Shown here: piece by piece, positions 9,249 to 62,724 of the stretch | How positions within the stretch are numbered: the stretch's first letter is position 1 | Layout of the letters: every line of letters begins with the position of its first letter | NCBI GenBank assembly: GCA_965116795.1 | Contig: OZ220716.1 | Location: 1,706,503 to 1,770,502 of the forward strand | Source: Gammaproteobacteria bacterium | Lineage (GTDB): Bacteria; Pseudomonadota; Gammaproteobacteria; JAJFKG01 | DNA: 64,000 nt | Reading direction: 5' to 3' | Translations under genes and position numbers: made by a program | The notes under the pieces: generated by a model | What the model saw: only the letters and a program-made list of their open reading frames with translations | Told to the model about the DNA's origin: nothing | The model's database searches: none

Positions 9249-9430
9249 TACAGCCTTTTCCTAAAATAATGACGCATTATAATTTTGGCTTTACTTTTCT
9301 AGCTTCGTCAAATACTTAATAAAAAGTACTCATTTAGGCTTAGCTAAACTCCGTCTTTTTCTTAAGCATTTTCCTTGCTAGAAAAACAAATCCTCGTTCT
9401 AATACCTCATTATTTTAGGAAAAGGCTGTA
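9249..9430. repeat. 182-bp MITE-like palindromic element, family B copy 1
   Basis: Perfect 24-bp terminal inverted repeats TACAGCCTTTTCCTAAAATAATGA / TCATTATTTTAGGAAAAGGCTGTA with TA ends; homologous to 42160-42341. Confidence 0.85.
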
Positions 9431-9632
9431 AAGGTTCATGGTCGTCGGCAAGTTAACAAGATTAATGCCAATTATATATGTGGTCAGTATTTATTAAGAA
9501 AATGGCGTAAAAATATGGAGTTATTGATGATGTTCAAGGCCATTATCATGCCACTGGATTGATGATAATCCTTGCAGCTGATGGCAAGCTTATTTATACT
9601 ACTTCGTTCCTTAATGACTAGGTAAATGATTC

Positions 9633-11030
9633 ATGATCAAACCAACATTAACCCGTTTAAGTGTTTTTACGCTAGCCATGTTGATTACCGGTGCTATCGA
9701 TAGCATTCGTAACTTGCCAGCGACTGCATTATTTGGCAGCACGCTGATTTTCTTTTTTATATTTGCTGCAATTGTTTTTTTAATCCCAACAGCATTGGTG
9801 TCTGCTGAATTATCGGCAACCTGGACTCAAGACAGTGGTGTCTATAACTGGGTGAAAAAGGCCTTTGGTGAACGATGGGCATTCTTTGCAATTTGGTTGC
9901 AATGGATTAACACAATGGTATGGTACCCAACCATTTTATCATTCATTGCTGGCACTATTGCTTTTTTAATTGATCCACAATTAGCGCAACAACGTTGGTA
10001 TTTGGTCAGTGTTATTTTAATTGTATTTTGGTTGCTAACCTTACTTAACTTGCGTGGGTTGCGCACGTCTGCGCGCTTTGCGACGTGGTGTACCATCATC
10101 GGCATGATGTTGCCAATGGCTATTATTATGGTATTGGCAGCAATTTGGTTATTAATGGGTAATGCCTCACAAATTCAAGTTAATTTGCATACTGTGATGC
10201 CTAATCTTGCCCACACTAACAGTTGGGTTTCACTGACCGCAATCATGGCTGCTTTTTTAGGTATGGAGTTAGCAGCAGTACATGTGAAAGACATTGAAGA
10301 TCCACAAGCAAAATTTCCCAAGGCAGTATTGTTATCTGTAGTGATTATTTTAGTCACCATGATTTGTGGTGCGCTAGCGATTGCAATGGTGATCCCAACT
10401 CATGAGATCAATTTAGTTGAAGGGGTGATGCAAGCCTTCCAACAATTTTTTAGTCGTTATCATTTAACCTGGATGACACCAGTGTTAACCATTATGTTAA
10501 TTATTGGTAGTTTAGGTGGGATGATCAATTGGATCATTTCGCCTGCCAAAGGGTTATTGCATGCCGGTGAAAATGGTTACTTGCCAGCAGTATTAACTCG
10601 CAAAAATAGCAAAGGTGTGGCAGCTAATCTGCTAATTCTACAAGCGATATTAGTGAGTGTAGTGTGTCTTGCATTTTTATTAATGCCCAGCGTGAATGGA
10701 TCGTATTGGTTGTTAACCGATCTGAGTACACAATTGTACATGTTAATGTATATGTTATTATTTATTGCTGCATTTACCTTGCGTAAACGTCACCCGCAAC
10801 AACACAGTGCATTTAAGATCCCCGGTGGTATATGGGGAATAGGTAGTACCTGTGGCTTAGGGTTAATTGGTTGTGTGATCACATTGTATGTTGGCTTTTT
10901 CCCACCAGAAGGCATCGATGTTGGTTCATTTGCACATTATGAAACAGTGTTTTCAAGCGGTATTATTTTGATGATTATTCCAGCTGGTTTGTTTTTCTTA
11001 TATAAGAAAAAGTCAGAAGTCTACGTGTAA
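9633..11030 (+). CDS. APC family amino acid permease (GadC-like)
   Basis: About 12 hydrophobic segments; IDSIRNLP, LVSAEL, FLGMELAAVH and AFKIPGG motifs. Confidence 0.85.
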   Translation: MIKPTLTRLSVFTLAMLITGAIDSIRNLPATALFGSTLIFFFIFAAIVFLIPTALVSAELSATWTQDSGVYNWVKKAFGERWAFFAIWLQWINTMVWYPTILSFIAGTIAFLIDPQLAQQRWYLVSVILIVFWLLTLLNLRGLRTSARFATWCTIIGMMLPMAIIMVLAAIWLLMGNASQIQVNLHTVMPNLAHTNSWVSLTAIMAAFLGMELAAVHVKDIEDPQAKFPKAVLLSVVIILVTMICGALAIAMVIPTHEINLVEGVMQAFQQFFSRYHLTWMTPVLTIMLIIGSLGGMINWIISPAKGLLHAGENGYLPAVLTRKNSKGVAANLLILQAILVSVVCLAFLLMPSVNGSYWLLTDLSTQLYMLMYMLLFIAAFTLRKRHPQQHSAFKIPGGIWGIGSTCGLGLIGCVITLYVGFFPPEGIDVGSFAHYETVFSSGIILMIIPAGLFFLYKKKSEVYV

Positions 11031-11046
11031 AGTGCAAAGAGTATAA

Positions 11047-12300
11047 TTAACGCGTTTGCCCGCCACCATAAATTCGATATTGATAACTGGTTAATTCAGC
11101 TAATCCCATTGGGCCTCTGGCATGCAGCTTGTCGGTACTGATCCCAATCTCTGCCCCCATACCGAATTCACTGCCATCGGTAAAACGGGTTGATGCATTC
11201 ACGTAGACAGCAGCTGAATCGACACTACACATAAAATGCTGTTGAGCTGTTTTATCATTTGTGACAATCGCATCAGAATGATGTGAACCATAACGATTAA
11301 TATGAGTAATGGCATCATCGATTGAATCGACGATCGCAATCGATAACACTAAATCTAAGTATTCTGTTTGCCAATCTTGATCAGTAGCGGGTGTCATATT
11401 CGTTATAAGTGCACAAGCACGTTGATCACCACGTAATTGCACACCGGCCTGGTGCAATTGTATTGCCATTTTCGGTAAGAATGCATTAGCAATGTTTTGA
11501 TGTATGAGCAAGGTTTCCATTGCATTGCATACACCAGGACGCTGACATTTAGCATTTAAACAAATGGAAAGTGCCATATCGATATCCGCATCTGCATCAA
11601 CGTAAGTATGACAAATGCCTTTGTAGTGTTTAATTACTGGAACTTTAGCGACATCAGTCACGTATTGAATCAATCCCTCACCACCGCGTGGAATAATCAA
11701 ATCCACATTCTCAGTATCGCTGGCTAATAAACCAATACAGCGGCGATCAGTTGATTCGACATATTGTAATGCGCCTGCTGGTAACAATTGCGCTTTTCCA
11801 GCAGTTAACAAAGCACGTAAAATCGCTTGATTAGAATGTTGTGCTTCACTACCGCCACGCAGAATTAATGCATTACCTGTTTTTAAACACAATCCTGCGA
11901 CATCTGCGGTGACATTAGGGCGTGCTTCATAAACAACAACAATGACACCAATCGGTGTGCGCACTTTGCAAATTTGCATACCATTTTCATGTGTCATCTC
12001 AGTTAAGGTGTCACCAATTGGATCAGGTAAGTTGGCAACATAGTTTAATCCAGTTGCCATCGCTTCAACTCGAGTTTTATCTAAACGCAGTCTATCAATT
12101 AGCGCAGGTGTTTGTTGTTTTGCGATCGCGTTATCGACATCTTGCTGGTTAGCTTGCAAGATCTGCTTGGTTTGTTCACGCAAACAGGTTGCCATGGTGA
12201 TTAAGAGTGCATTTTTAGCCTCAGTGCTAAGGCTAGCTAATGTGTAACTGGCTTGGCGTGCGCGAGTGGTGAGTTGACTAATTTCATTGGCTAATGTCAT
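11047..12300 (-). CDS. proA: Gamma-glutamyl phosphate reductase
   Basis: YEARPNVT, RGGSEA, GVCNAMETLL and NASTRFTDGSEFGMGAEIGIST; start placed at the ATG just after the proB stop. Confidence 0.93.
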   Translation of the reverse strand: MTLANEISQLTTRARQASYTLASLSTEAKNALLITMATCLREQTKQILQANQQDVDNAIAKQQTPALIDRLRLDKTRVEAMATGLNYVANLPDPIGDTLTEMTHENGMQICKVRTPIGVIVVVYEARPNVTADVAGLCLKTGNALILRGGSEAQHSNQAILRALLTAGKAQLLPAGALQYVESTDRRCIGLLASDTENVDLIIPRGGEGLIQYVTDVAKVPVIKHYKGICHTYVDADADIDMALSICLNAKCQRPGVCNAMETLLIHQNIANAFLPKMAIQLHQAGVQLRGDQRACALITNMTPATDQDWQTEYLDLVLSIAIVDSIDDAITHINRYGSHHSDAIVTNDKTAQQHFMCSVDSAAVYVNASTRFTDGSEFGMGAEIGISTDKLHARGPMGLAELTSYQYRIYGGGQTR

Positions 12301-61390: not shown

Positions 61391-61802
61391 ATTAGTATTT
61401 ATTATTGCATTAATTATTCTGGTAACCGGGTGTGATACCAGTGATAATCATTCGGGTACTCAGTTATCATCTGCCACGGTTGAGCGAGCGCAGCAAGCAG
61501 TGATTAATCCAACCAGAGGAGCTACGCAAGTGGTTGCTGGTGATCAGTATGCTGAATATGATGCACAACGTGGTGAATTTGAGCCAGATGTGATCGAGCA
61601 TAATTATCATCCTGATGATGAAGTTGATCCATTACCATCGGTCAGTGTGCTCCCAGAAGATGATGCTGATCAAGCCTTGTTAAAAGATGATAGTGGTCGT
61701 CTTGATGTTGATCGTGATGACGTTGAGAATGCCCACCTGCATATTGAACGTGGTGATCGACAGGAAAATGACTTTGATGATCGTAATGCTGAGCGAGAAT
61801 AA
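61380..61802 (+). CDS. Hypothetical acidic lipoprotein
   Basis: Lipobox LVTGC after a hydrophobic stretch; D/E-rich body; GGAGG RBS. Confidence 0.7.
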   Translation: MRHKLVFIIALIILVTGCDTSDNHSGTQLSSATVERAQQAVINPTRGATQVVAGDQYAEYDAQRGEFEPDVIEHNYHPDDEVDPLPSVSVLPEDDADQALLKDDSGRLDVDRDDVENAHLHIERGDRQENDFDDRNAERE

Positions 61803-61832
61803 TATCTCGAGAGCTGTTTTTTACGGTAGGTT

Positions 61833-62597
61833 TTGCAGACAAACAATATGATGATTAGCTTAGCATTAATCATTTTTGCAGTTGGTGTGGCCGGCGGTGC
61901 TTGGCCAATTGTATTGGGAGACAAACCCAATGCACGCCGTTGGTTGATCGATGGTGAAGCCTTTGCTCGTGGTATTTTCTTAAGTGCAGCAATCATCCAC
62001 ATGTTACCCAGTGCAGAGCAGGGTTTACATGATGCATTAGGTCGTGTCACTTATCCATATACCTTTGTGATTGCGATTGTCACCGTGTGGTTATTATATT
62101 TATTACGACAAGCCGCATTGCGTATTTGTCAACATACTTCATCACAAATTCATCGGCATTTACAACCGTATTTATTATTATTGGTATTGTGTATTCACTC
62201 TATCATTTTAGGTGGTGCGTTGGGGATTAGTGATAGTGTTGCTAATACAGTTGCCATTGCAACCGCTATCATTGCACACAAAGGTGCAGATAGCTTTGCT
62301 TTACTCATTAATATGCGTCGTTGCCAATTATCCAAAAATCAATTGTGGTACGCTGTGATTTTCTTTGCCTGGATGACCCCATTAGGAATGTTAATGGGAT
62401 ATGGTTTACATATGTATCTCACCACGCCACAGGGGCAATTAATGTTAGCGATATTTAGTGCGATTGCTGCAGGTACATTCCTATATGTTGCTATGGATGA
62501 AGCATTAAGTAGTAACGTTGGTGATGCCTCAATGGTTAGTGTGTGTTACTTTGGTTTAGGAATTGCGCTAATGGCACTGATTGCAGTGGTATTGTAA
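61833..62597 (+). CDS. ZIP family metal transporter
   Basis: GIFLSAAIIHMLP, CIHSII.G.ALG, IAHKG, TPLG, AGTFLYV. Confidence 0.88.
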   Translation: MQTNNMMISLALIIFAVGVAGGAWPIVLGDKPNARRWLIDGEAFARGIFLSAAIIHMLPSAEQGLHDALGRVTYPYTFVIAIVTVWLLYLLRQAALRICQHTSSQIHRHLQPYLLLLVLCIHSIILGGALGISDSVANTVAIATAIIAHKGADSFALLINMRRCQLSKNQLWYAVIFFAWMTPLGMLMGYGLHMYLTTPQGQLMLAIFSAIAAGTFLYVAMDEALSSNVGDASMVSVCYFGLGIALMALIAVVL

Positions 62598-62724
62598 TAT
62601 ACTCAAAGCGTTTTGAATTTAGGCGAGGCGGCAAGTCTTTGAATCAAAAGGAGTGTATTGAAATACATGACTTTTGTGAGAAGACGCAGCCAACAAAGCC
62701 TAAATTTAAAACGAGAAGAGTATA
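62598..62724 (+). repeat. ERIC-like element, family A copy 4 (abuts the ZIP stop codon)
   Basis: TAA|TATACTCAAAGCG...AAGAGTATA, 127 bp. Confidence 0.85.

Follow-up and report, generated by a model that had tools for sequence, protein, structure and literature searches.

How can repeat families with different arms, lengths and termini share one and the same hairpin at their tip, and what moves them? The question is raised by a stretch of 64,000 nucleotides (nt) from a gammaproteobacterial genome (assembly GCA_965116795.1, contig OZ220716.1, positions 1,706,503 to 1,770,502), referred to below as the window, in which palindromic repeats of three families, A, B and C, are dispersed. An earlier note made from the sequence had described a conserved core at the apex of all three and had proposed that one protein recognises this apex and mobilises them all. 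The answer favored here, with a probability of about one half, is that the repeats are two-part miniature transposons: their ends, which match those of insertion sequences (IS), would be moved by the transposases of these IS, and a shared module of about 75 nt, folded from one strand, would favor spread via a putative host protein.

The cores quoted for families A, B and C are all present at the positions given for them, and their sharing is not due to chance. A strict pattern was defined as G(G/C)AG, a 5-bp stem, a loop, the returning stem and TGA, with Watson-Crick pairing required in the stem. It is matched 6 times in the window and not once in 30/30 dinucleotide resamples, and 75 times in the 2.45-Mb genome versus 4-6 times in 3 resamples. 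When all the 5-bp hairpins of the genome are considered, the GGAG/TGA flanks occur 20-fold above independence. The cores at 42241 and 14349 have a C.A mismatch in the apex stem, and the copy at 27115 has lost its left arm. The arms were claimed to differ and do so: once the core is masked, no alignment is obtained between those of the three families (6/6 comparisons, p 0.25-0.89). Among six families, 4/30 arm comparisons were significant, two of these being between subfamilies of A. The lengths announced for A (127 bp) and B (182 bp) are correct, whereas C measures about 175 bp instead of about 140. The core was expected to be better kept than the arms within families, and it is, only slightly (0.90-0.97 versus 0.84-0.93).

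Folding of 16 representatives delimited the shared unit as a hairpin module of about 75 nt with the core at its tip. From the tip downwards, it consists of an apex stem that is closed by G.T and has TA/TA as an invariant feature, of the core loop, a stem of 17-25 bp and a second loop, which in most types places AGGC opposite AAC. The common core of the earlier note is real, but the unit extends further than the apex, to a second loop situated 17-25 bp below the core. The core loop exists in two forms that are a one-base register slip apart, either 2x2 GA/GA or 3x2 GNA/GA with a bulged A. The internal loop able to form tandem G.A pairs, which had been attributed to all three families, is found as a plain 2x2 GA/GA in A only; B (GGA/GA) and C (GCA/GA) have the 3x2 loop with the bulged A. 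A likeness of this loop to the K-turn, loop E, sarcin-ricin or signal recognition particle helix 8 motifs was not accepted, its middle base being mostly G or C.

The proposed covariation of the stem was confirmed. In an alignment of 22 sequences from this genome only, of which four rows are misregistered in the apex, 77.5% of the cells are paired versus 53.7% after shuffling. In a second alignment (A5), with 24 sequences taken here and in 15 further genomes, the values are 89.8% and 67.7%, with 0/500 shuffles reaching the former and slid controls at 34-43%; these pairing figures are inflated, as the set leans to the structure through its selection with our first model, R1, and the structure was drawn by us. 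Both sides have changed at 22/27 stem pairs, and the apex T-A and A-T are found in 24/24 sequences and the G.T in 23/24. The fold belongs to one strand and has fixed purine loops: the core strand is the one that folds better (15/16 as RNA, 4/4 as DNA), and its mismatches are biased, A.G exceeding C.T in 13/13 types and G.T exceeding A.C in 10/13. A scan of the window against Rfam returned 4 tRNAs and, beyond these, no family at gathering score; the same scan of 10 module loci gave 3 weak hits far below cut-off.

The inventory of the whole genome was established by a motif-independent search for long palindromes, which was then extended by BLAST from 13 seeds. It comprises 184 repeat pieces at 160 loci, 101 of them with a recognizable core and 96 of these full-length. 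At least 13 module-bearing types are represented, namely A1 (38), A2 (10), C (16), E (10), D (9), B (4), F and G (2 each) and five singletons, with sizes clustering at about 127, 140-150 and 175-184 bp. The copies, none of which are identical (their median identity is 0.71-0.89), are old; nearly all are intergenic, 2/101 lying within a frame of at least 100 codons. In the following, G000 designates this genome, and other G and L labels designate other genomes and loci examined. For 12 of 30 loci taken from the two nearest relatives, G001 and G002, syntenic flanks could be located in G000, and because 10 of these 12 sites are empty there, the elements must have moved; no empty site was seen in contigs from 4 sequencing runs. 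Short, non-coding, multi-copy, dispersed and variably present at orthologous sites, the elements belong to the class of miniature transposable elements with inverted repeats (MITEs), to which IS-related ends (A, B and J) and target duplications (A, B, E and C) also assign them. Some features of the inventory are recorded here for their own sake. A 400-kb region (G000:C1:1100000-1500000) that contains a broken IS630 holds just 2/184 repeat pieces, together with repeated genes that we read as phage-like. A family D element is inserted in the end of an A copy (G000:C1:1820181-1820479), and three further small families of long palindromes, at G000:C1:101045, 126855 and 2242335 with their clusters, have no core.

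The second part of the anatomy consists of the ends, which in families A and B and in singleton J match those of IS. The ends of family A are identical at 24/27 and 23/27 positions to the 27-bp terminal repeats of one resident IS630 (G000:C1:1315253-1316452); its closest relatives elsewhere have related terminal repeats and no module inside. Within the gene of the resident copy lies a core-less palindrome of 98 bp (L004:2255-2355), which has E-type tips, interrupts the gene and is flanked by duplicated TA. B ends match those of a gene-less element of 352 bp (L329) at 22-23/27 positions, and their tip recurs in an IS630 of 985 bp that encodes DDE_3 (L326). Those of singleton J match an 862-bp IS5 (L306) at 16/17 positions, and at L084 an element end is 24/27 identical to the end of the adjoining IS630. 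The clearest pair resides in G048, which harbors at least 24 copies of an IS630 (40-41% identical to the resident one of G000) and 24 elements of 217 bp. Both tips of the latter correspond to the left end of the IS, at 31/31 positions for the right tip and 25/27 for the left; the 20 regions fetched contain 17 full elements, 15 of which are near-identical, and 9/24 elements adjoin an IS copy. The pair is correlative support for mobilization in trans by the cognate transposase. At L540, an element with J-type ends is nested in a G048 element.

The target duplications differ with the ends. TA is duplicated by A1 (31/36 on the left, 30/36 on the right), B (4/4) and E (9/10 on the left). For family C the duplication is of 8 bp, seen at 7/8 or more in 5/9 scorable copies, with 7 more having unclear ends, and two foreign C-type elements, L135 and L265, agree with this length. 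The element of L265 sits in a gene that we read as ISAs1-like. Given the A/IS630 match, the G048 pair and the contrast between TA and 8 bp, it can be concluded that the ends depend on the IS present locally, and the duplication on the ends. One apex-recognizing protein mobilizing all the families, as proposed in the earlier note, is not supported by these data, the ends matching different transposase families and the duplications being TA for A, B and E versus 8 bp for C.

A mobilizer gene flanked by the core or distributed with it was also sought. Apart from frames of the repeats themselves and a small number of housekeeping genes, no family recurs in the flanks of 112 module loci, and a tested IS630 clade does not co-occur with the module (5/15 versus 33/85, p 0.78). 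The genome has 3 GIY-YIG and 7 Y1 gene matches, which are not flanked by modules, with the exception of one IS200-like copy beside an E element; the Y1 matches are multi-copy IS200-like elements, and 4/7 of their loci were scanned with the model. In 100 transposase-region loci, 3 module matches were obtained, all in separate elements beside or inside an IS, and no intact IS has an internal module. The strict pattern yielded 2 loci in viral contigs, between phage structural genes; a looser one yielded 76 loci, 15 of them with a model match and no neighbor in common. At L186:1320-1515, on an AT-rich viral contig, two different modules stand back to back in divergent orientation.

The module is widespread. 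Model R1, built from this genome only, found 82 sites in G000 at E up to 1 (150/651 candidates scored) and, with an E limit of 0.01, matched 38/100 further genomes in the class, one of them being the unpublished G041, which was also part of the 112-locus survey. A later model, R2, was used on the phylum with an E limit of 0.001 and matched 58/150 other genomes. Throughout the phylum, the loops retain their bases and spacing, with stems exchanged at the 22/27 pairs mentioned above. In one Escherichia coli chromosome, R1 gave 10 weak sites (E 0.02-0.9), all in core-bearing palindromes: five belong to what we take to be the ERIC type and five to a second type of 145-170 bp with a 3x2 core, presumably similar to YPAL/RU-2. 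Family A is 70-74% identical over 85% of the length to an intergenic E. coli repeat found in 2163/5426 genomes. This repeat carries the same core, scores 38 bits with R2 and, although unannotated in the record, is assumed from its size and its ends to be ERIC. With ERIC-type repeats bearing the core and family A aligning with them, the suspected likeness to ERIC holds, and so does the idea of a superfamily of palindromes with a conserved structured apex. The similar claim made for the Rickettsia palindromic elements (RPE) has indirect support from a profile comparison: the RPE1 profile TIGR01045 had a sole match in 401 genomes (positions 17-35 of 48), whose 22-23.5 bits do not reach the cut-off of 30, and which falls exactly on a module of 50 bits. 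The profile has no match in G000, and 1/7 translated elements matched it, below the cut-off. Head-to-tail tandem copies of module units that have no recognizable IS ends occur at L340, L352, L354, L365 and L369 in G002 and at L129 in G046.

The orientation of the elements and the decay of their copies bear on the stage at which the module acts. Orientation is unbiased with respect to transcription of the flanking genes (26 versus 28, p 0.89) and to the replichores (44/101, p 0.23). The loop bases of resident copies change as fast as those of the stems, or faster, in 4/5 families. Every multi-copy lineage retains its loops, even though arm recopying and deletion can erase them: a family D copy (C1:902784, within G000:C1:902700-902900) displays a perfect inverted duplication across the core, as predicted by template switching. 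Arm recopying is also suggested by double compensatory changes, which reach about ten times the independent expectation among copies that are themselves not independent. From the absence of orientation bias to genes and the decay after insertion, the module likely acts during copying. Core-less copies, five of A and four of C, have shared junctions and no derived changes in common, for which reason they look like separate deletions subsequent to insertion; a mobile lineage of core-less short copies was considered and dropped on the same ground.

The two-part explanation can be spelled out as follows. The outer ends would be of IS630 origin in A and B, of IS5 origin in J, and from some family duplicating 8 bp in C, and insertion would be carried out by the DDE transposase to which these ends correspond. 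Fresh ends were likely acquired on landing in or beside an IS, template switching then copying one arm of the element onto the other. The module is likely to be under selection at the donor site, in elements that have become single-stranded or form an extruded cruciform; there, the fold of one strand may be bound, as DNA or RNA, by a conserved putative host protein that favors spread. A number of observations weigh against this explanation, in addition to the inflated pairing figures and the lack of a recurrent gene beside 112 loci. Ends alone can suffice, as the 98-bp core-less palindrome has inserted with TA duplication on its E-type tips and the gene-less L329 wears B-type ends. The G048 element has recently multiplied with a degenerate module (25-31 bits, no second loop, T.T for G.T), for which reason the canonical form is dispensable. 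For the C, D, E and K ends, no cognate IS could be found, including in a search of 80 viral loci for the C ends, nor among 21 DDE_Tnp_1 loci for the ends seen in G191, G199, G083 and G097, G248 having no such loci; with B, F and two foreign elements as queries, no IS was identified in plasmids. Some elements of G002 and of alphaproteobacteria are arranged in tandem arrays and lack IS-like ends, which end capture leaves unexplained. Finally, in both insertions in or beside structural RNAs (2/2), the core is on the RNA strand.

These two insertions would fit a module that acts as RNA, its transcript being bound by a host protein or ribonuclease in control of processing so that carriers are purged less, with transposases using the ends and ignoring the module. 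One is a singleton of about 150 bp in the P12 loop of RNase P RNA (L107, G000:C1:1025980-1026140), an insertion absent from 5/5 relatives; the other, just ahead of the 23S rRNA start (L106, G000:C1:981985-982165), is itself preceded by an A element. Purine-rich loops and the G.U bias on one strand fit a structured RNA as well, and orientation-dependent effects of ERIC involving RNase E are reported (PMC2229807). Such a role is nevertheless rather doubtful in view of the unbiased orientation to flanking genes, of resident loops that are no better kept than stems in 4/5 families, and of cores barely above arms within families. Should the module be read during movement instead, a single enzyme, such as an HUH nuclease or a reverse transcriptase, could read the apex and mobilize all the elements via a single-stranded intermediate, the IS-like ends being secondary. 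A full-length foldback with covariation is unusual for elements needing two ends only, and the invariant TA/TA of the apex stem, the relatives devoid of IS-like ends and the head-to-tail arrays point in the same direction. We hold this to be improbable, as the duplication tracks the end type, the ends track the local IS in G000, G048 and L084, no neighbor gene recurs at 112 loci and no module lies inside an intact IS among 100 transposase-region loci.

The module may also have no function at all and be a neutral relic of one old MITE ancestor, whose arms and ends were rewritten by arm copying and capture and whose loops are merely hard to convert. Arm recopying is indeed visible, resident copies decay roughly evenly and sizes cluster as described. 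However, copying can erase the loop, as at C1:902784, and so can deletion, and yet loop bases and spacing are kept phylum-wide with 22/27 stem pairs exchanged, so that a relic also appears improbable. The two-part explanation is preferred. A bolder version of it can be put forward tentatively and is itself rather unlikely: the module would be the true selfish unit, read by a putative dedicated protein and capturing the ends of active IS, and ERIC, YPAL-like, RPE-like and Pseudomonas repeats would be one parasite.

Comparison with known systems separates what is new from what is not. REP/REPIN elements with their RAYT (Y1 HUH) proteins and integron attC sites are one-strand hairpins with conserved unpaired bases and thus provide a model for the reading of the module by a protein; unlike them, the elements described here have IS-type ends and target duplications, with no RAYT-like or integrase gene beside the module at 112 loci. 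Family A is an ERIC relative: with its size of about 127 bp (123 bp and a TA on either side), its IS630-type ends, its long stem-loop and its similarity to the enterobacterial repeat assumed above to be ERIC, it resembles ERIC (also IRU or RU-1; ISfinder MITEEc1; MITEPlu5 of Photorhabdus). Families B, C, D, E and the singletons differ from ERIC in ends, size and, for C, target duplication; B and C (182 and 175 bp) have no end-to-end similarity to it, and a B query found no ERIC in plasmids. The statement of the earlier note that the mobilizer of ERICs is not established was too strong, since PMC6267812 equates MITEEc1 with ERIC and ties its relative MITEPlu5 to CCC-type IS630 ends; this tie, which makes an ERIC-IS630 link already known, was drawn by sequence only. 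For RPE-1, the likeness lies in the RPE1 profile match on a module; RPE-1 differs by its in-frame location, ours being almost all intergenic. An RPE insertion into RNase P RNA is reported (PMC2229807), and one of our elements (L107) is likewise located in this RNA. RUP/IS630-Spn1, BOX/ISSpn2 and the R0 and R2 repeats of Pseudomonas fluorescens likewise have ends similar to a resident IS, and mobilization in trans was proposed for such MITEs (PMC3049150 and PMC2718517). There, each classical MITE is bound to one IS and its interior is held to be variable, whereas here a structured interior recurs between unrelated IS ends and is absent from the IS.

The second E. coli type, which we likened to YPAL/RU-2, shares the module; the available portions of PMC2759123 and PMC2229807 describe YPAL/RU-2 and RU-3 as separate families and state no common core. 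ERIC is presented, in the portions available, as one enterobacterial and vibrio family with no mention of a module shared with other repeats. More generally, ERIC, YPAL/RU-2, RU-3, RPE and the Pseudomonas repeats are treated as separate in the accessible parts of PMC10969869, PMC2267715, PMC2229807, PMC3184786, PMC2759123, PMC3049150, PMC2700814, PMC2996986, PMC3543383, PMC2718517, PMC3733652, PMC6267812 and bioRxiv 10.1101/2024.01.18.576219. Full-text searching, with subscription papers outside its scope, did not turn up any account of a module common to several MITE families. What is new is that a single conserved and folded interior recurs between the ends of unrelated IS families, for which the end matches and the differing target duplications are direct evidence here.

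The elements of the window are listed in the table below. Two further features of the window are worth recording. A 4003-aa open reading frame (29799-41810, +) contains charged tracts of low complexity and, at 39405-40238, a 267-bp unit repeated three times in tandem. A CGTC-type REP-like palindrome is present as an inverted dimer at 27248-27365; 14 such loci without module exist genome-wide, and the arms of several A and C elements carry small inserted hairpins related to it, for example at 14253-14455.

Table. Module-bearing elements and their fragments in the window (positions are those of the window)
Feature	Position	Strand	Remarks
Family A element (127 class, ERIC-like)	15925..16052	+	flanked by TA; 27-bp IS630-type ends; module internal
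Family A core	15977..15997	+	GA/GA loop of the 2x2 form; apex stem closed by G.T, its TA/TA invariant
Family A element	18808..18935	-	core 18863-18883
Family A element	45531..45657	-	core 45585-45605
Family A element	62598..62724	+	core 62650-62670
Family B element	9249..9430	-	182 bp including TA at each end; core 9330-9352, within a module at about 9300-9380; the ends are those of a different IS630 clade
Family B element, second subfamily	42160..42341	-	core 42241-42263, one C.A mismatch in apex stem
Family C element	14253..14455	-	203 bp, i.e. 175-bp unit plus small inserted hairpin; core 14349-14371
Family C element, left end decayed	17371..17521	+	core 17426-17448
Family C remnant	27062..27147	-	core 27115-27136 and right arm; left arm lost
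Family C fragment without core (right end)	22426..22464	+	
Family D right-end fragment (further module-bearing family of the genome)	7363..7410	-	

For 35 years, ERIC and repeats like it have been listed as families without relation to one another. If they are one module with borrowed ends, the question of the role of ERIC would narrow to a motif of about 75 nt and a handful of fixed bases, for which the recently multiplied IS630 and element of G048 constitute a ready assay system. If true, the standard view of the bacterial MITE as a deleted IS would change as well, to one in which the interior persists and the ends are exchanged.

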